DNA of 64,000 nucleotides from the NCBI GenBank assembly GCA_903902855.1, contig CAIUWK010000040.1, forward strand, positions 8,279 to 72,278, written 5' to 3'. A model generated the notes under the pieces. That model made no database searches. It was not told where the DNA came from and saw only the letters and a program-made list of their open reading frames with translations. Positions within the stretch are counted from its first letter, which is position 1, and the number at the start of each line of letters is the position of its first letter. Source of the DNA: an uncultured Geobacter sp. (GTDB taxonomy: Bacteria > Desulfobacterota > Desulfuromonadia > Geobacterales > CAIOGM01). The translations under genes and the position numbers were made by a program. Of this stretch, positions 1,438 through 60,218 are shown one piece after another.

Positions 1438-2382
1438 ATGTCTCTTTACGAACGGATCCTGGCGGGCGATATTCGCGCCGCCGCGCGCCTCATGCGCAAC
1501 ATCGACGACAATCTCCCCAGCTCCCGCAGTGACCTGCAGGAACTCTTCCCCCATACCGGAGGGGCCTTTCTCATCGGCGTCACCGGCCCGCCGGGTGCCG
1601 GTAAATCCACCCTGGTGGACCAGATTACCGCAGCCTACCGGAAACGGGGGAAACGGGTGGGGGTGGTGGCCATTGACCCCACGAGCCCCTTTACCGGCGG
1701 GGCGATCCTGGGGGACCGGATCAGGATGAATCGTCATGCCGACGACGAAGGGGTCTTTATCCGGAGCCTCGCCACCCGCGGCCACATGGGGGGACTCTCC
1801 CGCTCCACGGCCGACGTGGCCAACGTCATGGACGCCATGGGGATGGATGTGGTGATCATCGAGACCGTGGGGGTCGGGCAGGATGAGGTGGATATCGTCC
1901 GCCTGGCCCACACCACCCTGGTGGTCATGGTGCCGGGGATGGGGGATGACATCCAGGCGATCAAGGCGGGAATTCTGGAGATCGGCGACCTCTTCGTGGT
2001 GAACAAGGCCGACCGGGACGGCGCCGACCGGACCGCCCGGGAACTCTCCATGATGCTGGAGATGAACAAATACGCCGAGGGAGCATGGCGACCGCCGGTA
2101 CTCAAGACCGAAGCCCAGCGCAATGTGGGGGTGGACGAACTGGTGGAGAGCATGGAGAACCATCGCCAGTGGCTGGTGAACTCCGGAGAGATCAACCTCC
2201 TTCTCAAGGAAAAAAATGCAGCCCTCTTCCAGACCCTTCTGAAGGAACGGCTCTTTGCCGAAGTGTACGGCAGAATCGAGGAAGATGGCCGATTCGGAGA
2301 GATTCTGGATGGCATGCTCTCCCGACGGCAGGACCCTTATTCGGCCGTGGAGCAGATCCTGGCGGAACGACTCAAATCCTGA
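1438..2382 (+). CDS. meaB: Methylmalonyl-CoA mutase-associated G-protein chaperone (MeaB/ArgK)
   Basis: Walker A GPPGAGKST, NKAD G4 motif, 314 aa. It follows the B12-binding subunit with a 1-nt gap. Confidence 0.9.
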   Translation: MSLYERILAGDIRAAARLMRNIDDNLPSSRSDLQELFPHTGGAFLIGVTGPPGAGKSTLVDQITAAYRKRGKRVGVVAIDPTSPFTGGAILGDRIRMNRHADDEGVFIRSLATRGHMGGLSRSTADVANVMDAMGMDVVIIETVGVGQDEVDIVRLAHTTLVVMVPGMGDDIQAIKAGILEIGDLFVVNKADRDGADRTARELSMMLEMNKYAEGAWRPPVLKTEAQRNVGVDELVESMENHRQWLVNSGEINLLLKEKNAALFQTLLKERLFAEVYGRIEEDGRFGEILDGMLSRRQDPYSAVEQILAERLKS

Positions 2383-2400
2383 TGAAAAAAATCTCCTAGC

Positions 2401-3297
2401 ATGCACCTTATTCTGGCCAGGCTCATTGCCCTGACGCTCTTCAGCGCCATCGTCGTCAACTCCCCTCTGGTGGTTTCCGAACCGGGGGCAAATCCCAGGG
2501 ATCCCGCACGGGAAGATCTGACCAGGGTGGAGTATCCCAGCCTGGTCCAGGGAGCCTGGACCCCACGCTTTATCCTCCCTCAGGAAACCCTCGAATCACT
2601 CTACGGCGACGATTGGGTCACCGTGGCCCGGTTCAACCGGGTCGACCGCCGCCACGTCTATCCCGGTATGACCATCAAGGAACCCCTGGACATGGCTGCG
2701 GCCCGGGAGTATACCCCCATGCCGGAGTTCTATGAACCGGCAAGTGGACATGAGAAATATATCCTCATCAATATCACCGAACAGTGGCTGGGTGCCTACG
2801 AATCCGGCAGGCTGAAATTCTCCATGCCGGCGGCCACTGGAAAAAAAGGAACCGAAACCCCCACCGGCATCTTCCGGGTAAGCGCCCGGCACCTGAACCA
2901 CTCTTCATCCCTCTACCAGACCGATGCCGGTGACGAGCAGTATCCCATGGATAACGCCATCCGGTTCCATATCGACGAGAATGCGGTGGCCTACTGGATT
3001 CACGCCCGGGACCTCCCGGGGCGACCAGCCTCCCATGGCTGCGTGGGGCTCTTTGACGAGACGATGCAGAACCGGGTCTACGGCTTTCCCGACGAACCGG
3101 TTCTCCTGGACTCGGAAAAACTCTACGAGTGGGCCGTGGGGGAAGAGGAGTACGAAGACGACGTGGGTGAACAGGAAGAGCTGGAAGATGGACCCGTGGT
3201 GGAAATCATCGGCGCCAATCCCCCCTATCTACCGTTCCCCGTCAAGGCGCTTCCGGGCCAGGCCCGTCGACAAATGACGCCGGGCCGGAAACCATGA
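2401..3297 (+). CDS. L,D-transpeptidase (YkuD domain) with signal peptide and acidic C-terminal tail
   Basis: Catalytic SHGCVGL motif, hydrophobic N-terminus, and an E/D-rich tail. Confidence 0.8.
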   Translation: MHLILARLIALTLFSAIVVNSPLVVSEPGANPRDPAREDLTRVEYPSLVQGAWTPRFILPQETLESLYGDDWVTVARFNRVDRRHVYPGMTIKEPLDMAAAREYTPMPEFYEPASGHEKYILINITEQWLGAYESGRLKFSMPAATGKKGTETPTGIFRVSARHLNHSSSLYQTDAGDEQYPMDNAIRFHIDENAVAYWIHARDLPGRPASHGCVGLFDETMQNRVYGFPDEPVLLDSEKLYEWAVGEEEYEDDVGEQEELEDGPVVEIIGANPPYLPFPVKALPGQARRQMTPGRKP

Positions 3298-4897: not shown

Positions 4898-5767
4898 CTA
4901 AAGCCGGCAAACCTTGGTCTGGAGAAAGGCGGTAAAATCGTCCCGGAACTCCTCCCGCTTCAACGCCAGATCCACTGTGGCCTTGAGAAAACCGAGCTTG
5001 TCGCCGCAGTCATGACGTATCCCCTCGAAATGACAGCCGTAGATGGTGCGGCTCTTGGAGAGTTCCAGAATGGCGTCGGTGAGCTGAATCTCCCCCCCCT
5101 TGCCCGGTTTCTGCTTTTCCAGGATCGGGAAGATGTCCGGAGTCAGAATATAGCGACCGATGATCGCCAGGTCGGAGGGAGCATCCTCCTGTTTCGGCTT
5201 CTCTACCAGATCCAGCACCTCATAGGTGCGGGTGGCGATGGTCTGGGCCTTCACGCAACCATAGGAGGAGATGGCTTCCATGGGAACCTGCTCCAGCGCC
5301 AGGACCGGCCCCCGCCAGTGGCGGTAGACATCCAGAAGCTGGGCCAGACAGGGTTTCTCGGAGTCAATGATGTCATCCCCCAGAAGCACGGCAAAAGGTT
5401 CGTTGTTGATGAATTCCCGGGCGCAGAGAATGGCGTGACCAAGCCCCAACGCCTGTTTCTGCCGGACATAGAAGATGTTCACCAGGTCCGCCAGAGAACG
5501 GACCGCATCCCGTTCGGAATGCTTCCCCTTCTCGTGAAGGAGCGCCTCCAACTCGAAAGCGATGTCGAAATGATCCTCGATGGCCCGCTTGCTCCGCCCC
5601 GTCACGAAGATGATCTGTTCGATACCGGCGTTCACCGCCTCCTCCACCACGTACTGGACCAGCGGTTTGTCGATGAGGTTAAGCATCTCCTTGGGAGAGG
5701 CCTTGGTTGCCGGGAGGAACCGGGTGCCGAGACCGGCAACAGGAAAAATAGCTTTTTTTATCTGCAT
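4898..5767 (-). CDS. galU: UTP--glucose-1-phosphate uridylyltransferase
   Basis: N-terminal PVAGLGTRFLPATKA motif, 289 aa. Confidence 0.93.
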   Translation of the reverse strand: MQIKKAIFPVAGLGTRFLPATKASPKEMLNLIDKPLVQYVVEEAVNAGIEQIIFVTGRSKRAIEDHFDIAFELEALLHEKGKHSERDAVRSLADLVNIFYVRQKQALGLGHAILCAREFINNEPFAVLLGDDIIDSEKPCLAQLLDVYRHWRGPVLALEQVPMEAISSYGCVKAQTIATRTYEVLDLVEKPKQEDAPSDLAIIGRYILTPDIFPILEKQKPGKGGEIQLTDAILELSKSRTIYGCHFEGIRHDCGDKLGFLKATVDLALKREEFRDDFTAFLQTKVCRL

Positions 5768-5785
5768 GGGAAATCTCCTTTAAAA

Positions 5786-5870
5786 AAGTGAATAGTGCAT
5801 AGTGAATGGTGAAACGACAAGAACAAAAACAGTTTTTTTCACTTTTCACTTTTCACTTTTCACTTTTCGC
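5786..5870. repeat. Inverted pair of heptamer arrays: (A/T)AGTGAA-type x4 on the left, TTTTCAC x5 on the right
   Basis: 5786-5813 reads aagtgaa tagtgca tagtgaa tggtgaa. 5836-5870 reads ttttcac x4 plus ttttcgc. The arms are mutually complementary around a 22-nt spacer. The folD stop codon lies inside the right arm. Confidence 0.85.
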
Positions 5871-28842: not shown

Positions 28843-31326
28843 ATGCAAACCCTCATCCAGCTCTTCCGGAGCTTCCCCCATCACGGGGAACATGCTGCCA
28901 TCATTCACCGGACCGGGGTACGACGGCTGATCACTACCTATGATGAGCTGCACCAGGGGGCGCTGCGCTGCGCTTCCCTCCTGCAACAGCAGGGGGTGGG
29001 ACCGGGTGACCGGGTGATGCTCTGGGGCCCCAACTCCCCGGCCTGGGTCATCGCCTTCTGGGGGATTCTCGCCCGGGGAGCCGTGGCCGTTCCGGTGGAC
29101 TTCATGTCCGGCCGGGAGCGGGCCGAGACCATCGCCCGGCTGACTGATTCCCGAGTCGCGTTCCAGAGCCGGACCAAGGGTGATCCCCTGGGATCGGTAC
29201 CGGTCACCATCCGCCTGGAAGAGCTCCTCTTCATTCTCCCCCGGCATCCGCCGGCGCCGGTGGCGCTTCCCGCAGAACCCGATGACCTGGCTCAACTGGT
29301 CTACACCTCCGGCACCACCGGCAATCCCAAGGGGGTAATGCTCACCCATGGCAATCTGGCCGCCAATCTCCGGCAGGTAAACGAGCATATCCCGGTGGTG
29401 GGTCCCGAGTACCTCTTCCTCTCCGTCCTCCCCCTGTCGCATATGTTCGAGCAGATCGGGGGGATGCTGGTCCCTCTCTCCCGGGGGGGAGCCATCGTTT
29501 ATCTGGGGACGATCAAACCGTCGGCCCTCATGCAGGCGTTCCGGGAAGAAGATATCCGGGCCATGATCCTGGTTCCCCGACTCCTCCTCATGCTGAAAAC
29601 CTCCCTGGAGCGTAAACTTGTGGCCCACGGCCTGGAGCGCCTCTTTGCCCGGCTCGTGGCACGGGTCTCCCCCCTCCCGCTCCCCCTGCGCCGGGCGCTC
29701 TTCTTCCCCATCCACCGCTCCTTCGGGAGTCACTTCACCCTCTTCGTCTCCGGCGGTGCCCCCCTTGACCCCCATCTGGCCCGTTTCTGGAACAGCCTGG
29801 GGTTCCGGCTCCTGGAGGGGTACGGACTCACCGAGTGTTCTCCGGTCCTCACCGCCGCCACCTTCCGGCAACAGATCCCCGGGAGCGTGGGGCTCCCTCT
29901 CCCCGGCGTAGAGATCCGGCTGGAACAGGGGGAGGTCCAGGCCCGGGGGGCAAATATCTTCAGCGGCTACTTCCGAAACCCTGAGGCAACCAGGGAAGCC
30001 TTCACCCCTGACGGCTGGTTTCGCACCGGCGATCTGGGGGAACTGACGCCTGATGGCTGGCTCCTGATCAGGGGGCGGAGCAAGGAGCTCATCGTCACCG
30101 GTGCCGGGGTCAATGTCTACCCCGACGAGATTGAGGCGCTCCTCTCAAAGGTTCCCGGGCTCCGGGAGGGGTGCGTCATCGGCCTGGACCGGGGGGAGGG
30201 GGAAAGTGTCCACGCGGTGATCATCCCCGATGGGAGCGGGAGAAAACCCGACGAGATCATGGCCGAGGTGAACAGGGGGCTGGACCCGCTCCACGCCGTC
30301 ACCGGCATCTCCATCTGGCCGGAAGGAGAGTTCCCCAAGACCACCACCCTCAAGGTGCAAAAGTTCAAGGTCCTGGAGCGGTTGAGGGCGACCAGGGAGG
30401 GGGACGCGGTCACGGCAACAGACCAGCTGACAGGGATGGTTGCCCGGATCACCGGCTGCCGCTGCGACGAGGTGAGGGAGGAGTCGTATCTGGTGGCTGA
30501 CCTGGGACTCACCTCCATCGCCCGGCTGGAGTTGGTGACCGCCCTGGAACAGGAGTACCGGCTGGACCTGGAAGACACCCTCATCGGCCCCCAGAGCCGG
30601 GTGAGCGATGTGCGGGAACTGCTCCGGAAACGGGAGCAGCTTGCCGGCCCCCGTCATCGCTTCCGCTTCTGGAGCAACAGTCTCCCCATCCGGCTCTTCC
30701 GGCAGCTCTGCGACCTCTGCCTCAACTACCCCCTCTTCCGGCTCTTCGTCCGGCTGGAGGTCCGGGGGGTGGAACAGCTGGCAGAGCTGGACGGTCCGCT
30801 TTTCTTCATCGCCAATCATCTGAGCTACCTGGACCACCCCTGCATCATGTTCGCCCTCCCCCGCTCCCGGCGCTACCGCACCGCCACCGCCGCTTGGGCC
30901 GAGTTCTTCTTCCAGAACTTCAGTAACCCCTGGCAGCGCGCCTGGAAGCGGTTCACCTACGACTACGGGACCCTGGCCCTCAACCTCTTCCCCCTTCCCC
31001 AGGAGAGCGGCTTTCGCCCCACCGTGGCGTTCATGGGAAAGCTGGTGGACGCCGGCATCAGCATCCTCCTCTTCCCCGAGGGAGAACGAACTCTCTCCGG
31101 GAAATTACTCCCCTTTCGTCCGGGGATGGGGCTCATGGCTCGGGAATTGGGGATACCGGTGATTCCGGTGGGAATCCGGGGGGCGGAAACGGTGCTCCCC
31201 CGGGGGAGAAACATCCCCCGGCGGGGAACGGTGACGGTGACCTTCGGTTCACCTCTCCGTTTTACGGTGGAGACGCCGGAGGAGATCATCCGGCAGAGCG
31301 AAGAAGCGGTGGCCCGACTCCTCTGA
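28843..31326 (+). CDS. Tri-domain fusion: acyl-AMP ligase (AMP-binding), carrier (PP-binding-like) domain, lysophospholipid acyltransferase
   Basis: AMP motif YTSGTTGNPKGVMLTH. Carrier-like segment LVADLGLTSIARLELV. Acyltransferase HX4D (NHLSYLD) and FPEGER motifs. 827 aa. Confidence 0.85.
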   Translation: MQTLIQLFRSFPHHGEHAAIIHRTGVRRLITTYDELHQGALRCASLLQQQGVGPGDRVMLWGPNSPAWVIAFWGILARGAVAVPVDFMSGRERAETIARLTDSRVAFQSRTKGDPLGSVPVTIRLEELLFILPRHPPAPVALPAEPDDLAQLVYTSGTTGNPKGVMLTHGNLAANLRQVNEHIPVVGPEYLFLSVLPLSHMFEQIGGMLVPLSRGGAIVYLGTIKPSALMQAFREEDIRAMILVPRLLLMLKTSLERKLVAHGLERLFARLVARVSPLPLPLRRALFFPIHRSFGSHFTLFVSGGAPLDPHLARFWNSLGFRLLEGYGLTECSPVLTAATFRQQIPGSVGLPLPGVEIRLEQGEVQARGANIFSGYFRNPEATREAFTPDGWFRTGDLGELTPDGWLLIRGRSKELIVTGAGVNVYPDEIEALLSKVPGLREGCVIGLDRGEGESVHAVIIPDGSGRKPDEIMAEVNRGLDPLHAVTGISIWPEGEFPKTTTLKVQKFKVLERLRATREGDAVTATDQLTGMVARITGCRCDEVREESYLVADLGLTSIARLELVTALEQEYRLDLEDTLIGPQSRVSDVRELLRKREQLAGPRHRFRFWSNSLPIRLFRQLCDLCLNYPLFRLFVRLEVRGVEQLAELDGPLFFIANHLSYLDHPCIMFALPRSRRYRTATAAWAEFFFQNFSNPWQRAWKRFTYDYGTLALNLFPLPQESGFRPTVAFMGKLVDAGISILLFPEGERTLSGKLLPFRPGMGLMARELGIPVIPVGIRGAETVLPRGRNIPRRGTVTVTFGSPLRFTVETPEEIIRQSEEAVARLL

Positions 31327-51602: not shown

Positions 51603-52406
51603 TTACCGCCGGGTTCCCCGGCAGAGGATGAGCGGCGTATAGGTAAAACGGCGGGGATCGGCAAAAAATGCCCTGAATTCTTCCAGGAATTCAGGGTAAC
51701 CGCCGGCATACTCCACAAACGGGAAACCGGAATGCCTGGCAGCGACTTCGATCTTCCGGCTCCAGTTGTAGGCGTCAACATCACTCAGGTTGCCGTAAAT
51801 CAGATGATGCGACGTCACGTCCACGGCGATCTGTTCCAATCCGTTGTCATAGAGAAAAGCATAGAGCTTCCTCCCCACATAGGGATCAAAATCGAAATCA
51901 CGTTCAATGAGCGCCATGAGTCCGTTGAGGGTAGTTTCAAGGCGTGGTGAAAGGGGGTAGTGGGTAAGGCAATTATAATCCAGATCGATGAGACAGAGCA
52001 CCCCCCCCGGATTCAGCAAAGAGATCAGGTTTTTCACGATTTCAGCGGCAGCAGAACGGTGGTATTCCAGCAGGAAGCGAACCCAGATGAAATCGAAACC
52101 ACCCAGGTCACCGAGCGGCAGGCAGATGTCCCGGCAGACGAACTCTATCCCGGCAACTCCGTACCGCGTACGGGCATGCTCGACTCGTGACTCCGAGGCA
52201 TCCACCCCCAGAACCGTCCCGCCCGGCCCGACCAGGTCAAAGAGGTACGAAGTCGTTTTGCCGGAACCGCACCCGAAATCGGCCACCCGCATCCCCGGCG
52301 TCACTCCGGCCCAGAGTGCCTGCCGGTTGACGGCGGCGCGGTCGGTTTTCAGATCCAGACGCAGGGCCTCTTCCTCATGTTCCATGAGATAACGGTTTTC
52401 CGGCAT
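51603..52406 (-). CDS. Class I SAM-dependent methyltransferase
   Basis: Motif I VADFGCGSGKTT, 267 aa. Confidence 0.8.
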   Translation of the reverse strand: MPENRYLMEHEEEALRLDLKTDRAAVNRQALWAGVTPGMRVADFGCGSGKTTSYLFDLVGPGGTVLGVDASESRVEHARTRYGVAGIEFVCRDICLPLGDLGGFDFIWVRFLLEYHRSAAAEIVKNLISLLNPGGVLCLIDLDYNCLTHYPLSPRLETTLNGLMALIERDFDFDPYVGRKLYAFLYDNGLEQIAVDVTSHHLIYGNLSDVDAYNWSRKIEVAARHSGFPFVEYAGGYPEFLEEFRAFFADPRRFTYTPLILCRGTRR

Positions 52407-52473
52407 GGCACCCCCCTTTCTTCGGAAAAAGGTGTCGCTCTCAGCTTCAGGTCAGGTCACAAGGAGTTTCGCC

Positions 52474-53739
52474 ATGGCATGCAAAAACTCGATCCGAAAC
52501 GGAGTACTCTTCTTTTTCGCGCTGTGCGGTTTCACCTCCGTCGCCCAGGGATCGGGCTACGGTCTCTTCACCCAGGGAGCATCCCCCCTGGGCCAGGCAG
52601 ACGCCGTGGTCGCCCACTGTGACGGCGCGTCGACGCTCTTCTTCAATCCTGCGCTCATGAGTAAACTACCGGGAACCCGGGTGGAAATAGGCACAACCCT
52701 GCTCTTTCCCACTCGCCATTACACGGCTCCCGACGGGTACACGGCAAGCACCAAGGATACGGTTTTTACTCCCAGCACCTTTTACCTGACCCACACCTTC
52801 AACGACAAGATCAGCGCCGGTCTGGCGGTATTTAACCCCTTCGGGCTGGGAACCGACTGGGGGAGTAATTGGGGAGGGGCTTATGGTGGCCAATACATTG
52901 CAACGAAGTCGGAACTGACGACCTGGGAGATCAACCCGGCAGTTTCATACCGGATACTGCCGGCGCTTTCCGTCGCAGCCGGGCTTGACGTTCTGTTGCT
53001 CAACGCAACTCTCGAAAACAAAAATCTGTCAACCACTTACGGTTTCCCTACCCGTTTTGATGTTGCGCAAAAATTCACCGGTTCAGGCAACGGAGTAGGT
53101 TACAATTTCGGCCTATCGTTGGAATTGCCCTACGATATCTCTTTTGGCGCTTCGTACAGGAGTCAGGTAACCATCGACGTGGATGGCGATTTTACTGCCG
53201 ATGTCCTTTCCCAAAGCGTCGGAGGCAAGACAACAGTGAAGCTTCCCCAACAGGTTTTCGCCGGAGTTGCCTACAAACCGACGGATCGAATGACGCTGGA
53301 AGCCGGAATGCGCTGGGAAGATTGGAGCTCATTCCAACAGCTGCAAATCCAATTTGCCCCCAACATATTCGGTCTGCCCTCTCCTTCTCCCTCTCCCCGC
53401 GACTGGCACAGCAGCTACGCCTTCAACCTGGGGGGTAAATTCAAGATCAACGATACCTTTTCCCTTATGGCGGGGTACCTGCACGGCTGGAATCCGGTGC
53501 CGGACAGCACCTTTGACCCGTCAATACCTGATTCGGACACCAATCTCTATACCTTCGGCGGGGAAGCCCGTTACCACGGCTTTACCCTGGGGTTGGCCTA
53601 TGGCTACCAGATGCAGAGCGCCCGTTACAAGTCCGACAACGCTTACGCCCCTACACCTCTCAATGCCTCTGCCTCTGCCGATGGCACCTACGAAACCGAC
53701 CTCCACCTGGTGGGGTTGAGCCTGGGATACACGTTTTAA
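52474..53739 (+). CDS. Outer-membrane hydrophobic-compound transporter (FadL/OMPP1/TodX family)
   Basis: Signal peptide, an N-terminal G(Y)GLFTQGA hatch-like motif, beta-barrel alternation, and a C-terminal aromatic residue (GYTF). Confidence 0.8.
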   Translation: MACKNSIRNGVLFFFALCGFTSVAQGSGYGLFTQGASPLGQADAVVAHCDGASTLFFNPALMSKLPGTRVEIGTTLLFPTRHYTAPDGYTASTKDTVFTPSTFYLTHTFNDKISAGLAVFNPFGLGTDWGSNWGGAYGGQYIATKSELTTWEINPAVSYRILPALSVAAGLDVLLLNATLENKNLSTTYGFPTRFDVAQKFTGSGNGVGYNFGLSLELPYDISFGASYRSQVTIDVDGDFTADVLSQSVGGKTTVKLPQQVFAGVAYKPTDRMTLEAGMRWEDWSSFQQLQIQFAPNIFGLPSPSPSPRDWHSSYAFNLGGKFKINDTFSLMAGYLHGWNPVPDSTFDPSIPDSDTNLYTFGGEARYHGFTLGLAYGYQMQSARYKSDNAYAPTPLNASASADGTYETDLHLVGLSLGYTF

Positions 53740-54629
53740 GTTCCCTGCAGCGCCACTACTCCTGCCCGCCCCTCGATCTCTCCCATGCTCAAGGGGGAAT
53801 CAGGGGCCCCCTTGCCGAACTCCACGGCAGCCTCCGCCAGGGTGATGAACCGGCACCCCAGAGCAGTCAACCGCTCCAAAAGGTCCACAAAAATTGCAGC
53901 GGTCGCCTTCCCTTCCAGTTCCGCATGGATGGTCAGCACGTTGAGTCCCGGAGTGATGAGGGAGAGATAGTGGTCGTTGAGCGTCTGAGTCGTGATCCCG
54001 TTTTCACCCAGCAGTTCATCGGTGGTGGGGAGGGTGGTGGGAAGTTGCAGAGTCCGGAACCGCCGCCCCTCCCAGACCGGATAGAAGGGGGCGCGGCCGC
54101 GACTGTCGCTGCTGTACTCAAGCTTCAGTGCGTCCTGCACCTCCAGGGAAGCGGCAGAGACCATCCACCCCGGCGCGGCCACCGTTTTTGTCCGGTGGCC
54201 GAAGATCTCCTCATAGACGGCGCTGGCCTGTCCCATTTCCAGGGCCACGGTGGGCTTCAGCATTCGGGGGAGATAGTCGTGCCACTTCACATGGTCCCAG
54301 CAGTGGATTCCCACCTCATGCCCCTCCTGCTCCGTCCGGCGGATAATCTCGCCAGAACGCGCCCCGATCATGGGAGGGGGTAACAGCGTACCGTAGAGGA
54401 GGGTACGCAGGCCATAGACCGACGGCGCCCGGGTCCGGATCATCTTGGCGAGAAACCCTTTTCGGGTAAAGATGCGTCGGATGGCCTTACCGGAGTTATC
54501 CGGGCCCAGGGAGAAGTAGAAGGTCCCCCGGATGCCGAACCGCCGGAAGAGGTCCAGCAGCGCCGGAACCCCGTCTCGGGTGCCGATAAAGGTGTCCACA
54601 TCAACTTTCAGGGCAATGACTGGGAGCAT
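53736..54629 (-). CDS. Polysaccharide deacetylase family protein (ArnD-like deformylase)
   Basis: LKVDVDT ... HCWDH NodB-type motifs. Start at ATG 54629. The longer ORF start only translates the heptamer array. Confidence 0.75.
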   Translation of the reverse strand: MLPVIALKVDVDTFIGTRDGVPALLDLFRRFGIRGTFYFSLGPDNSGKAIRRIFTRKGFLAKMIRTRAPSVYGLRTLLYGTLLPPPMIGARSGEIIRRTEQEGHEVGIHCWDHVKWHDYLPRMLKPTVALEMGQASAVYEEIFGHRTKTVAAPGWMVSAASLEVQDALKLEYSSDSRGRAPFYPVWEGRRFRTLQLPTTLPTTDELLGENGITTQTLNDHYLSLITPGLNVLTIHAELEGKATAAIFVDLLERLTALGCRFITLAEAAVEFGKGAPDSPLSMGEIEGRAGVVALQGT

Positions 54630-54636
54630 AATATCC

Positions 54637-54733
54637 AGGTTCAAGGTTAGAGGTTCAAGGTTCGAGGCCGAGGTTCGAGGTTCAAGGTTCAAGGTTCAAG
54701 GTTCAAGGTTCAAGGTTCAAGGTTCAAGGTTCA
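54637..54733. repeat. 14-unit heptamer array, consensus AGGTTCA (8 perfect consecutive copies at the 3' side)
   Basis: The array reads aggttca aggttag aggttca aggttcg aggccg aggttcg, then aggttca x8. Confidence 0.95.
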
Positions 54734-54803
54734 AAAACGATACTATACTGCGATTCACCGGTTTTTTAGAACTTATTTTTACCGGAGAGCCGCAGTTAAC
54801 GGG

Positions 54804-55616
54804 CTAAAGAGTCAGGGGAACATACCCGTCACTGACATACCGCTGGGCGTAGTTCTGACCACCGAAAATGAGAAGATAGAGGTCCATGACCTCCGGCTTT
54901 ATCTTTCTGGAACAACAGTATTCCTGAACGGTTCGGACAACGGATTTTCTTTCTTTCAGGCTGCATAACGTGTAATCCTTCCTGGAATCGATCAATCCAA
55001 TAGCTGCTGCAACTTTCATGACTATCAAATCCGGTTTAATGCAGGGAAAACCCAGATACAATAACAAGTGCAACAGGGCAGTATCATTCTTGAAATAGGG
55101 CATGTCCATGACAATAAATCCGGCGAGGAGATAATCGTACTGTTGCCAAAATCTGTTTATATCATCTTCCGTTGCCAGCTCTTTCGGCAGGTTATAGTTG
55201 TCGAAAAATGTTTCAATGCTTATGTTGCTGTTCCGGTTGGAGGCGAGTAGTTTGGCGCACGTGATGATCGCACCCACTTTCTTCTTAAAGCGAATATCCC
55301 GTATGGCGCCCCAATTGTTTTCGATGATCCAATCGGGATTCATTCGGGCGACTGTCCGTATGTCAAAATGAAAAAAGACCCTCTCGAAAACACCACTCTC
55401 CAGGATGGCAGCCACCGCATCCGATGGCGCATTATTGCTGTAGGCTATCAGGGACGCCATGACCCGCAGCAGATTGTTGTTCTCCCTGGCGACAGTTTCC
55501 GCGTATCTGTTGGTACGTGACTGTATCTCCTGGGAGAAGAGCGGGGTTACCGCACACAGGTCGATCTTTGTTCGCAGGGCATCCAGCTTTTGATACATAT
55601 CCACAACATCCTCCAC
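54804..55616 (-). CDS. Hypothetical protein, divergent helix-hairpin-helix glycosylase-like (Tag-like?)
   Basis: This is the clearly lowest-GC gene in the window. The segment FFHFDIRTVARMNPDWIIENNWGAIRDIRFKKKVGAIITCAKLL parallels E. coli Tag CFHQFDPVKVAAM...GIIRHRGKIQAIIGNARAYL by eye only. Confidence 0.35.
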   Translation of the reverse strand: MEDVVDMYQKLDALRTKIDLCAVTPLFSQEIQSRTNRYAETVARENNNLLRVMASLIAYSNNAPSDAVAAILESGVFERVFFHFDIRTVARMNPDWIIENNWGAIRDIRFKKKVGAIITCAKLLASNRNSNISIETFFDNYNLPKELATEDDINRFWQQYDYLLAGFIVMDMPYFKNDTALLHLLLYLGFPCIKPDLIVMKVAAAIGLIDSRKDYTLCSLKERKSVVRTVQEYCCSRKIKPEVMDLYLLIFGGQNYAQRYVSDGYVPLTL

Positions 55617-56739: not shown

Positions 56740-56773
56740 AAAAAAAACAGGCCCCGTTTATGGCGGGGCCTGT
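56740..56773 (-). terminator. Rho-independent terminator after tRNA-His
   Basis: Minus strand stem ACAGGCCCCG...CGGGGCCTGT followed by T8. Confidence 0.75.
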
Positions 56774-56780
56774 TTCAAAA

Positions 56781-56857
56781 TGGGGTGGCTAGTGGGATTT
56801 GAACCCACGTATGTACGAGTCACAGTCGTAAGTGTTAACCGCTTCACCATAGCCACC
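56781..56857 (-). tRNA. tRNA-His (anticodon GTG), with G-1 and encoded CCA
   Basis: The reverse complement is GGTGGCTATGGTGAAGCGGTTAACAC... It has anticodon stem TACGA/TCGTA with loop CTGTGAC, T-arm GTGGG-TTCAAAT-CCCAC, and 3' end CCCA. Confidence 0.9.
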
Positions 56858-57131: not shown

Positions 57132-58100
57132 TCACCCCTTCCCCGTCAACTCCCGCAACGCCTCTTGCGCCTCTTCGTAGTCGGGGCGCTTCACCAACGC
57201 CTCGGCATAACACTCCTCGGCATACTTGGGCATGGTCAACGCCTCGTAGCAGCGCCCCAGGAGGTAGTTCACCTCGGGAAGCGGGCATTGCTGACGAAAA
57301 AACTCGTCATCCAGCACATCCCAGAGGATCGCCGCCGCTTCGGCGTACTCCTGCTGCTGCTGAAGATTCAGGGCTACCCCGATGGCCTCCAGATAATCCA
57401 CCGCAGGCACCAGGGGATGCGCCCCCGCCTCCAGCCGCCCCAACCGCTCCTCCAGTTCTAAAGAGCGCTCCCCCACCCCGATCCGGCACGCCGTCTGAAA
57501 ACTCTCCAGGGCCTCGTCGTACTTCCCCAGCAGCCAGGAGACATCCCCATACAGGAGGAGCAGGTCCGGATCTTCCGGGGTCAAGAGCAAGGCCCGGTTC
57601 AGGTAGCCTTGAGAATGGTAAAGATTGCGCGTGGTCTGATTCAGGGCCGAAAGGCGTAACCCCTTTTCCCGGTAGACACGGCCGATCTGTTTGAGAAAAA
57701 GCGGATTCTCCGGTTCCATGAGCAAAAAGATCCGAAGCGCCGTTATCAGCCGGTCAAGGTAGAGGATATCCACATCCTTTTGCTCCAGCATGAGGAGCTG
57801 GGTGGCCAAATCCGCCACCAAATGAGGATAGGCATCCCGCAGCAGCAGCGCGTAGTGGTCGGCAAAGGTGCAGCCGGGGTTTTGCCGCAGAGCCTGATAG
57901 AGCCCGTCACCCACCGCGTCATAGGAGGGGATCTCTCCCGGAAGAAGCGCCGCCACAACCTCTTCCCGCAACGGGATGGGGATTCCGCCACAGGGGACCG
58001 TGGCCCGACCGTCCCGGGCCGAAAGAATTGTCCCCTCGGGTGGGGTCACATAGCTGATCCCCGCCAAGGGGGTCGGCTCCATCATGCCGGTTCCTGCCAT
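57132..58100 (-). CDS. TPR-repeat protein
   Basis: Several TPR-like helical pairs are present (e.g. YLLGRCYEALTMPKYAEECYAEALVKRPDYEEA). The start overlaps the upstream stop (TAATG). Confidence 0.75.
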   Translation of the reverse strand: MAGTGMMEPTPLAGISYVTPPEGTILSARDGRATVPCGGIPIPLREEVVAALLPGEIPSYDAVGDGLYQALRQNPGCTFADHYALLLRDAYPHLVADLATQLLMLEQKDVDILYLDRLITALRIFLLMEPENPLFLKQIGRVYREKGLRLSALNQTTRNLYHSQGYLNRALLLTPEDPDLLLLYGDVSWLLGKYDEALESFQTACRIGVGERSLELEERLGRLEAGAHPLVPAVDYLEAIGVALNLQQQQEYAEAAAILWDVLDDEFFRQQCPLPEVNYLLGRCYEALTMPKYAEECYAEALVKRPDYEEAQEALRELTGKG

Positions 58101-58948
58101 TATCGAACCTCCTCTTCCGGCTCACGTTCCGGAAAGGTGTTGACGCCGGCGAAGTCGCCGACGGATTTATAGATCCGGACACCGTCCCACGGCTCGTCAA
58201 GGATGCCGTCGTGGATCGCCCAGCTTCGCCCCCGAACGGTCAGCTCCGCACCCGGCATCCGGAAAGGGGTAGAGCCGTCCAGCCGAGAGAAAAGCCTCCC
58301 ACCGGGACGAAACTCCTCATTGATCCGCAGCATGAGGGTCCGGCCGGTGAGATAGTCGAACCCGTATTTTTCGTACCGGATGGCGTTGTCGTAGGAAAGC
58401 GGCTCCGCCGTGATGATATCCACACCTAGGCCATCCACGAAGCGCTCGAACCGGGGAAAAAACTCGGTGAACAACCGCAACCCCCGGCGAACCTGATTGG
58501 GGAAGAGTCCCGCCTGCATGGAGCGAAGCTCTTCAGGAATATTGCGCCCCAGGGAGGCGAACCAGTTATCCTTCCCCATGGCATCCACATCCACCTGGAA
58601 ACGGGGCGCATCGGGATCGGTGATGATGCAGAAGGAGAGTTCGATCTGATGATAGGCGGTATCGGAGATCTCCAGGAAAAAGAGCGGGTCCCGCTCCCCG
58701 GGGCTCCGTCGGGCCACGATTCGGGTGAACCCCAGACCAACCGGAGCGATGAACTCCACCGAGGGGGCGCCGTCAGCTCCCAAGGAAGCTTCGGGGGTAA
58801 TCCCCAGGACAGAGAAGAGCCGCGGCGGAAGGAGTGCCCGGTAAAGCCGCTCCTTCTCCTGCACGTCCAGGACGTTGATCTCCCGCAGGGAACAGAGCGG
58901 CTTCCCCAGGCGGGTAACGAGCTGTTCATTCCCCGGAAGTCGTGGCAT
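58100..58948 (-). CDS. Conserved hypothetical protein with GNAT-like C-terminal signature
   Basis: The segment VRRGLRLFTEFFPRFERFVDGLGVDIITAEPLSYDNAIRYEKYGFDY resembles GNAT motif A/B (…N.AI.lYEK.GF). This was judged by eye only. Confidence 0.6.
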   Translation of the reverse strand: MPRLPGNEQLVTRLGKPLCSLREINVLDVQEKERLYRALLPPRLFSVLGITPEASLGADGAPSVEFIAPVGLGFTRIVARRSPGERDPLFFLEISDTAYHQIELSFCIITDPDAPRFQVDVDAMGKDNWFASLGRNIPEELRSMQAGLFPNQVRRGLRLFTEFFPRFERFVDGLGVDIITAEPLSYDNAIRYEKYGFDYLTGRTLMLRINEEFRPGGRLFSRLDGSTPFRMPGAELTVRGRSWAIHDGILDEPWDGVRIYKSVGDFAGVNTFPEREPEEEVR

Positions 58949-60080
58949 AGGTCCCGATGATCACCGGAAAGATCCGCTTCCGGATGGCTGAAATACTCTT
59001 CTCCACCTCGTCCAGCGCCCGGTTCCGGTCCCCCTCTTCGGCCCAGTACATGGCGTCCAGCAGCATGGTATTGGCGCACCCCATCTCCGAGATGGTCCGG
59101 ATGAATTCCACCGGGAGCCGGGGGGAGAGCTCCACCCCGTTCATGATCCCCCAGGCGATGGTCCAGGCCCGGGCCACATTCACCAGGTCATACCCTCCCC
59201 CCCCCAGGGCCACCCAGGGAATCCGCAACGCCTTAAGCTTTCGAAGGACATAGGAGTAGCTGTGGGTGGTGATCTCCAGCCGCGAGAGAGGGTCGGTGCG
59301 GAAGGTGTCGGCCCCCAACTGGGTAACCAGGACATCGGGATTGTAGGCGGCGATGAGAGGATAGGCGACCTCGTCGAAGGCCTTCATGAAGAGGGCGTCG
59401 TCGGTATGCTCCATGAGGGGGACGTTTACCGAATACCCCTTCCCCGCCCCCTTCCCCGTCTCATGTTCGAAACCGGTGCCGGGAAAAAAATGGAGCCCGG
59501 TTTCGTGGAGGGAGATGGTGAGCACCCGGTCGGTGTCGTAGTACGCCTCCTGTACCCCGTCGCCATGATGGGCATCCAGGTCCAGGTAGACGACCCGCAA
59601 CCCTTGGGCCACCAGCTGGTTGATGGCCACCACCGCATCATTCAGATAGGAAAAGCCCGAAGCCCGGCCCCTGTGGGCATGATGCAGGCCGCCGGCAAGG
59701 TTGAAGGCGATATCATACCCCTCCCGGGTCACCAGGCGGGCCGCCTCCAGGGTCCCGGCGGTGCAGAGGCGGGCCCAGTCGTAGAAGCCGGGGAAGACCG
59801 GATTCTCCACATCCCCCAGGCCATAGCGGAAATCGGCCCGGGAATCGGTGGAATCGTTGAACTCGGCCAGTCGCCGGAGATAGTCGGAGGAATGAAAGGT
59901 CAGGAGTTCGGCGTCACTCACCCTCCCGCACTCCCGGATATGGGCGTTCTTCAGGCGGGTCAGGCCGTACGCTTCCATGAGATCAAAGGCCAGCCGGTAG
60001 CGCTGCACCTTGAAGGGGTGGTAGTCGCCATAGGAACAGGCGCTGAAATCGTGGGAGTAGACGAGGGCTGTTCTGGTCAT
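58926..60080 (-). CDS. Histone-deacetylase-family (AcuC/arginase-fold) deacetylase
   Basis: GGLHHAHRGRASGFSYLND and DLDAHHGDGVQ zinc/catalytic motifs, 384 aa. Confidence 0.9.
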   Translation of the reverse strand: MTRTALVYSHDFSACSYGDYHPFKVQRYRLAFDLMEAYGLTRLKNAHIRECGRVSDAELLTFHSSDYLRRLAEFNDSTDSRADFRYGLGDVENPVFPGFYDWARLCTAGTLEAARLVTREGYDIAFNLAGGLHHAHRGRASGFSYLNDAVVAINQLVAQGLRVVYLDLDAHHGDGVQEAYYDTDRVLTISLHETGLHFFPGTGFEHETGKGAGKGYSVNVPLMEHTDDALFMKAFDEVAYPLIAAYNPDVLVTQLGADTFRTDPLSRLEITTHSYSYVLRKLKALRIPWVALGGGGYDLVNVARAWTIAWGIMNGVELSPRLPVEFIRTISEMGCANTMLLDAMYWAEEGDRNRALDEVEKSISAIRKRIFPVIIGTYATTSGE

Positions 60081-60218
60081 GGGATACTTGGGTAAGGAGA
60101 TGTCTGCCGCGAAACTCTACTACCTCCCGCCGGGAGCGTCAACCGGTAACTTCTCCCCGGAAACAGAGAAAGGCGGAGGAATACCCCGCCTTTCTCTGAA
60201 ACAGGTGAAGCAAGAGTG

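Follow-up and report, generated by a model that had tools for sequence, protein, structure and literature searches.

An overlapping deacetylase-MID gene pair of Geobacter introduces a GNAT-like protein family with a probable role in Acu-type control of AMP-forming ligases

We analyzed a 64,000-nucleotide stretch of DNA (the window) from an uncultured Geobacter sp. (GenBank assembly GCA_903902855.1, contig CAIUWK010000040.1, positions 8,279 to 72,278), in which three overlapping minus-strand genes encode a deacetylase (gene 1), a middle protein that we call MID (gene 2) and a tetratricopeptide repeat (TPR) protein (gene 3). MID founds a strongly conserved family that has not been described before and has a divergent GNAT-like core, and the overlapped deacetylase-MID gene pair is conserved across Geobacterales. 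The operon is probably a variant of the acuABC/AcsA lysine-acylation switch of Bacillus, arranged around this new GNAT-fold component and controlling the acylation of ligases. We place it in the Acu frame because, across lineages and in differing gene orders, MID is associated with a writer (the acetyltransferase AcuA), an eraser (HDAC-type deacetylases) and a substrate class (AMP-forming ligases).

Among contigs representing one genome per species, 573 of 599 pattern matches code for a relative of MID. We analyzed the best 80 loci; all have MID relatives, at 58-80% identity, mostly from Geobacteraceae and Desulfuromonadales. The deacetylase gene lies directly upstream of MID, on the same strand, in 71 of the 80 species loci, and its stop overlaps the MID start in nearly all of the 80 (modal spacings of -20, -23 and -8 nt). 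A TPR gene directly follows MID in 45 of the 80, and 30 of the 42 loci that could be scored have a MID-TPR overlap of 4 or 1 nt (modal spacings of -4 and -1). At loci without the TPR gene, MID is followed, after a gap of >200 nt, by a gene for an ATP-binding cassette (ABC) ATPase, a general synteny neighbor. Thus, deacetylase and MID make up the core of the operon, and the TPR gene is a clade-specific accessory. Where the trio is complete, median identities are 67% for the deacetylase, 63% for MID and 42% for the TPR protein. The first-pass annotation of this region, made from the sequence without database searches, had treated the trio as one coupled unit and named conservation of the three-gene order across genomes as a check. 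The genes do co-occur widely, but the TPR gene is accessory.

Judged by its motifs, gene 1 is an intact zinc-dependent lysine deacetylase of the class-I/AcuC type, in agreement with the first-pass description. Residues 21-311 match PF00850 (Hist_deacetyl) with an E-value of 8.5e-84 and 281.8 bits, against a cut-off of 27.9. The catalytic set is complete and comprises the His-His pair H133/H134 (GGLHHA), the Asp-His-Asp zinc ligands D169/H171 (DLDAHHGDG) and D258 (GADTFRTD), and the tyrosine Y297 (GGGGY), with roles assigned by analogy with HDAC8 and HDLP. The closest PDB relatives are the class-I proteins RPD3, HDAC1/2 and Aquifex HDLP. This class-I group corresponds to the AcuC-like cluster of PMC11532494.

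MID, in contrast, had been noted as having no obvious family, and it has no match in Pfam, NCBIfam, PADLOC or the PDB sequences (phmmer and a profile search of the PDB). A Pfam scan of 34 family members at E-values up to 10 returned no Acetyltransf_* or GNAT hidden Markov model (HMM) and no other model. We identified 3,856 homologues in a large protein collection, every one unnamed or "hypothetical"; the family forms 238 representative clusters at 50% identity. Looking up the exact sequences of the three operon proteins gave no names either. Literature on Geobacter with AcuC, HDAC or acetylation yielded nothing on the operon or the MID family. The N-terminus is conserved from Met1 onward (M-x-[RK]-L-P-G-N-x-x-L, with N7 and L10 invariant in 19 homologues), which supports the start codon. 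Other conserved motifs are GRNIPEE (134-140), NQVRRGLR (151-158), YDNAIRYEKYGF (186-197), LDGSTPFR (223-230) and GRSWAIHDG (240-248), and many polar residues are invariant. D111, at the end of beta4, and Q152/R154/G156/L157, in the loop before helix alpha3, are ≥90% conserved, and the position of the usual general-acid tyrosine (Y192) is occupied by Y, H, F, L or M. The family motifs, the GNAT loop-like segment included, are kept across all genomic contexts, which suggests that MID has the same function in each of them.

The AlphaFold2 model of MID (pLDDT 93.3, pTM 0.89, from a 34-sequence alignment) places beta1 at ~11-17, alpha1/alpha2 at 21-48, beta2-beta4 at 74-110, alpha3 at 160-173, beta5 at 178-181, alpha4 at 186-194, beta6 at 198-201 and beta7 at 258-262. 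In our mapping this predicted order fits the GNAT core b1-a1-a2-b2-b3-b4-a3-b5-a4-b6-b7. The model departs from that core by a 50-residue insertion between beta4 and alpha3 and by a helical C-terminal extension of 80 residues, which holds the most highly conserved motifs (LDGSTPFR, GRSWAIHDG). Foldseek scores against the PDB were weak, with no match at E ≤ 1e-3 and a best E-value of 0.019. Despite these individually insignificant scores, practically all of the top 50 belong to the GNAT/NAT superfamily, including Ard1, YqjY, AAC(6'), NatD, KacT, NMT, p300, FeeM and the C-terminal domain of Mycobacterium tuberculosis ICL2 (6edw), and the named matches in a second library, BFVD, are again N-acetyltransferases. 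It is on these weak scores that we assign MID a putative GNAT-like fold.

The first-pass annotation had read the C-terminal third of MID as resembling GNAT motifs A and B. Both segments map to alpha3-beta5-alpha4 of the confident model, whose structural neighbors are GNATs: a motif-B-like helix (N-A-I-x-x-E-x-x-G-F) is present, and in place of the motif A loop Q/R-x-x-G-x-G/A we found Q152-V-R-R-G156-L-R158, which is non-canonical in spacing and last position. The central Gly and flanking Q/R of this loop are ≥90% conserved, and the 50-residue insertion precedes it. MID resembles its nearest structural neighbors among canonical GNATs (3d8p, Ard1 4pv6 and RimI-type proteins) in predicted element order and motif-B-like helix, and differs from them in lacking a profile match and in its pyrophosphate loop, insertion and C-terminal extension. 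AcuA gave no PDB sequence match to MID, and an hhalign comparison of MID with an AcuA profile (four fusion N-termini, described below, plus the two PDB AcuA sequences 2q04 and 9g7f_C) had a probability of 0.3%. Given this value, MID is not a detectable AcuA paralogue, and we rejected that relationship.

The link to AcuA instead comes from gene fusion and gene order. Four representative clusters (P0124, P0125, P0128 and P0134; 461-489 aa) are fusions with AcuA at the N-terminus and MID at the C-terminus, and the N-terminus of P0128 matches PDB 2q04 (E 1.4e-12) and, over the whole domain, B. subtilis AcuA 9g7f_C (E 1.4e-10). A homologue search with the AcuA-like N-terminus, limited by the word index, gave three matches in all. 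We also scanned metagenomes with remote MID family members as seeds and examined 80 loci, for which the neighbor counts are lower bounds because many contigs are too short to score. AcuA is fused to MID or on the same strand in at least 3 of these 80 loci and is divergently transcribed beside MID in at least 5 (in L161, E 3e-28 against 9g7f_C). The R-x-x-G-x-G/A loop is intact in most MID-linked AcuA domains, an exception being P0128, with Glu in place of the Gly. Neither the window nor the 80 Geobacterales loci yielded an AcuA homologue. HDAC genes adjoin MID, in both orientations, in at least 5 metagenome loci (L142, L149, L151, L153 and L174). Remote lineages thus have the pair in either order and also in divergent orientation, with the deacetylase gene preceding and overlapping MID in L087 and following it in L085.

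Two further observations concern the domain arrangement of MID relatives. In locus L093 (1003-2782), AcuA and a MID fragment, with a 4-nt overlap, come after a CBS-pair gene; this arrangement resembles a frameshifted AcuA-MID fusion, and the CBS gene beside AcuA recalls acuA-acuB. The AcuA of L093, a stand-alone relative at 70% identity, is named AcuA by the Joint Genome Institute (JGI). Other MID relatives carry different N-terminal extensions, among them HEAT-like repeats in P0159, ~300 residues without a Pfam or NCBIfam match in P0164, and a further extension in P0142. Given this variation, MID behaves as a mobile C-terminal module.

The metagenome scan also links MID to the substrate class. 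MID has an AMP-binding ligase gene directly beside it, on the same strand and no more than 400 nt away, in at least 21 of the 80 loci, 5 of them downstream at 15-39 nt and 16 upstream, ending a few nucleotides from the MID start; in L090 MID overlaps the AMP-binding gene. Some MID-ligase pairs have neither AcuA nor HDAC nearby, and two HDAC-less Geobacteraceae paralogues of MID (L045 and L047) stand beside a gene for a fatty-acid CoA ligase. The MID-adjacent ligases represent three subfamilies of the AMP-forming (ANL) enzymes (PRK12583, FadD11-like and FAAL/PRK07768-like) and are fatty-acid type or FAAL-like rather than acetate-specific. All have the A10 catalytic Lys motif (PMTASGKIQKF, PKTTSGKIQH or TPTLKVRRK).

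The nature of these ligases also suits a different cycle, in which an ANL ligase would make acyl-CoA or acyl-AMP, MID would N-acylate an amine (for instance a polyamine, amino acid or lipid head group) and the acyl group would be taken off by the HDAC-family amidohydrolase. The structural neighbors of MID include FeeM, which synthesizes N-acyl amino acids, and the HDAC family includes acetylpolyamine amidohydrolases (APAH) (PMC11532494). HDAC-less MID paralogues lie among acyl-CoA catabolic genes, and genes for FadL/TodX-type fatty-acid porins directly follow MID in L080 (6057-7352) and L087 (6138-7460), with another FadL-type porin gene in the window at 52405-53739, 3.4 kb from the operon and on the opposite strand. 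We nevertheless consider a small-molecule cycle improbable. APAH form clusters separate from the class-I/AcuC-like type to which the deacetylase belongs (PMC11532494), the surroundings of the operon show no conserved biosynthetic or export genes, and such a cycle would hardly account for the repeated association with AcuA, which is dedicated to lysine acetylation of the protein AcsA. The three porin cases hint at a fatty-acid theme; we rejected the idea that FadL regularly accompanies MID, as only 2 loci have it directly after MID. The HDAC-less Geobacteraceae paralogues in L031, L053, L063, L064 and L066 (MID at ~5001-5870) follow a DUF6125 gene, precede genes for enoyl-CoA hydratase, acyl-CoA dehydrogenase and carboxyltransferase (leucine/isovalerate-type catabolism), and carry a 13-residue internal duplication, ILDEPWDDLSVDK.

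Many other MID relatives adjoin unrelated genes (SmpB, MobA-like, ThiI, Usp and MCP). Together with the individually insignificant Foldseek scores, this could mean that MID serves the deacetylase in a structural or chaperone-like way, unrelated to acyl-CoA or ligases, and that its GNAT likeness and gene neighborhoods are incidental. Such a coincidence seems very improbable, as three independent types of association point to one known pathway across lineages and gene orders, and the GNAT loop-like segment is kept throughout the family.

That pathway is best characterized in B. subtilis, where the acuABC operon encodes an acetyltransferase, a regulator and an HDAC-type deacetylase (PMC13121692, PMC13039410). 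There, AcsA is acetylated by AcuA at its A10 lysine and is in addition inhibited by AcuA binding (PMC11255334, PMC11910552). AcuC takes off the acetyl mark of AcsA, and AcuB forms a stoichiometric inhibitory complex with AcuC that responds to adenine nucleotides or Ap4A (PMC13121692, PMC13039410). The Geobacter-type operon is similar in that it encodes an AcuC-type deacetylase together with a protein of putative GNAT fold and a third one that is not catalytic, and in that MID relatives are fused to AcuA and adjoin AMP-forming ligases, the A10 lysine of which is the known Acu target. Unlike acuABC, it contains no homologue of AcuA (to which MID is not detectably related) and no CBS-ACT protein of the AcuB type, a TPR protein occupying the third place. 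In addition, the deacetylase gene comes first, no acsA is adjacent, and the window has no AMP-binding gene within ~28 kb of the operon. The MID-associated ligases are fatty-acid types, not acetyl-CoA synthetases such as AcsA. Of the acuABC-type arrangement (AcuC, AcuA and AcuB beside acsA), the AcuC-type gene alone is present. The first-pass annotation did not recognize the trio as a characterized system. The combination of a deacetylase with an acetyltransferase-fold protein in one operon is, however, not new as an idea, because acuABC has it. The new part is the MID family: MID is not AcuA, AcuB is missing, a TPR protein is added and fatty-acid ligases are associated.

We propose that the operon could be a control unit of the Acu kind, through which AMP-forming (ANL) acyl-CoA/fatty-acid ligases would be reversibly acylated on lysine. 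In this scheme MID and the deacetylase would form a stoichiometric complex. MID would bind acyl-CoA or CoA in the predicted GNAT cleft, at the conserved loop Q152/R154/G156/L157, and would gate or target removal of the inhibitory acyl-lysine by the deacetylase according to acyl-CoA status. It may act directly on the ANL ligases, as gene neighborhoods outside the window suggest. Its role would be AcuB-like, exerted by a non-writer GNAT fold comparable to that of PanZ or ICL2, and the TPR protein might serve as a lineage-specific scaffold.

Precedents for parts of this scheme exist. E. coli PanZ/PanM and the C-terminal domain of M. tuberculosis ICL2 are non-catalytic GNAT-fold acyl-CoA sensors. 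In the role that we favor, MID would resemble them as a GNAT-like, ligand-dependent partner of another enzyme; unlike them, it would have different partner enzymes and a ligand that is so far hypothetical, and it has no sequence relationship to either. Pat-type acetyltransferases consist of a regulatory domain fused to a GNAT domain, and the AcuA-MID fusions similarly join a writer domain to a second, possibly regulatory, domain. In contrast to Pat-type proteins, the extra domain is itself GNAT-like and is also found as a stand-alone protein paired with an eraser.

Whether MID senses or writes is the main choice within the Acu frame. We slightly and tentatively favor a sensor or targeting subunit over a writer, because the AcuA domains fused or adjacent to MID mostly look intact and a second writer would be redundant. 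The non-canonical loop and the variable Tyr position likewise agree with a regulator, as does an association profile of MID that resembles that of AcuB. The alternative, that MID is a highly divergent GNAT lysine acyltransferase acting on the A10 lysine of ANL ligases and opposed by the AcuC-type deacylase, strikes us as rather unlikely. Such an enzyme would replace AcuA functionally and perhaps use longer acyl-CoAs, and this is essentially the view of the first-pass annotation. The motif-A-like and motif-B-like segments do lie at the right topological places of the GNAT-like core, D111 could serve as general base, and conservation is enzyme-like, with its many invariant polar residues. Writer genes are classically paired with those of erasers or substrates (acuA/acuC, acsA-acuABC; PMC13121692), some MID-ligase pairs stand apart from AcuA and HDAC, and the window and the Geobacterales loci are without AcuA. 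A writer would, however, modify the same lysine as the AcuA to which MID is fused or adjacent, mostly with AcuA's own loop intact. It would also have to work with QVRRGLR in place of the canonical loop, with a Y192 position that varies and with a 50-residue insertion between beta4 and alpha3, in a family in which none of 34 members matches a GNAT HMM even at an E-value of 10. Thus, the earlier description of MID as acetyltransferase-like agrees with its putative fold but hardly with an activity, given the non-canonical loop, the variable Y192 position and the AcuA fusions. Likewise, the proposed reversible acyl-modification module gains from the AcuA fusions and ligase adjacency, which tie it to reversible acylation, but MID as its acetyltransferase is unsupported.

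Several points weigh against a regulatory Acu-like unit. Binding of acyl-CoA by MID is so far presumed, and proteins with a GNAT fold are for the most part enzymes. The conservation of MID comes close to that of the deacetylase (63% vs 67%, with the TPR protein at 42%), which gives MID the look of an enzyme. Adjacency to a ligase could mean that the ligase supplies the acyl-CoA donor, and the MID-ligase pairs without AcuA or HDAC fit a self-sufficient writer at least as well. Furthermore, the operon has no ligase gene beside it; the closest AMP-binding gene of the window is ~28 kb away. That gene (28885-30372, plus strand) is the sole AMP-binding-type ligase gene detected in the window, and its product is 27% identical to the L045 ligase.

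In bacteria, the metabolic use of protein acetylation is best understood for the reversible lysine acylation of acyl-CoA synthetases. To our knowledge, the known writers (Pat and AcuA) and regulators (AcuB) cover only some phyla. As MID is tied by fusion and gene order to writer, eraser and substrate, it is a strong candidate to fill a gap in this control in Desulfobacterota and other anaerobes, and its family has thousands of members without a Pfam or NCBIfam profile. It is conceivable, although we hold this with limited confidence, that MID founds a new class of GNAT-fold regulators for AMP-forming ligases, as an acyl-CoA-sensing HDAC switch or as an unrecognized family of lysine acyltransferases. 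In the first form, the deacetylase would be the first bacterial HDAC under direct control by acyl-CoA status. In either form, the activation of fatty acids or acetate in Geobacter would have a switch dedicated to it. Since Geobacter lives on these compounds, control of their activation bears on its electron flow and on its use in bioremediation. In the second form, the family would be invisible to every GNAT profile and would overturn the statement that bacterial lysine acetyltransferases are all recognizable GNATs (PMC11532494). The deacetylase-MID-TPR trio is present in Geobacter metallireducens, which is cultured and genetically tractable, so the prediction is directly testable.

The TPR protein family is limited to Geobacterales, including G. 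metallireducens, Geotalea uraniireducens and Geomonas. TPR HMMs match gene 3 at ~148-320, with TPR_16, TPR_2 and TPR_8 above their Pfam cut-offs at 165-207. Its AlphaFold2 model (pLDDT 91) has a small four-strand beta unit at ~15-45, which is conserved, and helical repeats at 60-319; Foldseek matched it to a consensus TPR and to the OGT TPR (E 2e-6, probability 1.00). The protein had been taken as all-TPR, which does not hold, as its first ~60 residues are non-TPR and include the beta unit, and TPR profiles match at ~148-320 alone.

The layout of the operon and its flanking signals is given in Table 1. The overlaps described earlier (23 nt and a TAATG junction) agree with the coordinates, and overlapping open reading frames (ORFs) are kept in related species. 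In detail, the deacetylase stop at 58926 lies 23 nt inside the MID ORF, which starts at 58948, and a Shine-Dalgarno sequence (GAGGAGG) is found 8 nt upstream of the TPR gene ATG. Such overlaps suggest stoichiometric co-expression of the three genes. The promoter candidate is a consensus match alone; the scan found 2 such sites against 1.0 expected.

Table 1. Features of the operon and its flanks in the window
Feature	Position	Strand	Basis or remark
Deacetylase gene (gene 1)	58926-60080	-	384 aa ORF
MID gene (gene 2)	58100-58948	-	282 aa ORF
TPR gene (gene 3)	57132-58100	-	322 aa ORF
Overlap of deacetylase 3' end and MID 5' end, 23 nt	58926..58948	-	ORF coordinates
TAATG junction (MID stop TAA and TPR start ATG, 1 base common)	58098..58102	-	
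Sigma-70-like promoter candidate TTGACG-17-TAGAGT	60114..60142	-	Consensus scan; 34 nt upstream of deacetylase ATG
tRNA-His	56781-56856	-	ARAGORN; downstream of TPR gene
Intrinsic terminator, strong, 13-bp stem	56776-56744	-	Terminator scan

The tRNA-His gene and the terminator (56744-56856) close the transcription-unit region on the same strand as the operon, and co-transcription may occur. The operon is flanked by unrelated genes, for a beta-carbonic anhydrase, a PEP-CTERM protein, an OmpA-like lipoprotein and the FadL-type porin. None of the three proteins matched a PADLOC model for anti-phage defense. As the PADLOC search was blank and the neighbors are housekeeping genes, we rejected an anti-phage defense system.

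Downstream of the operon in 45 of the 80 Geobacterales loci, whether the TPR gene is present or not, is the gene for an ABC-transporter ATPase with a conserved N-terminal extension of ~60 residues. These loci span L003-L079 (for example, L010 at 2273-3148). We rejected the ATPase as a fourth operon member, given the gap of >200 nt, its absence from the window and its character as a general synteny neighbor.

Two other features of the window lie near the operon. A 270-aa ORF without a Pfam match (54804-55616, minus strand) is in a stretch of lower GC (0.53). A tandem repeat of 14 copies of the 7-bp unit AGGTTCA (54637-54734; 89% matches, Tandem Repeats Finder score 147) overlaps the annotated TTG start region of a polysaccharide-deacetylase-like ORF (53736-54692, minus strand), and this array could be slippage-prone or regulatory.

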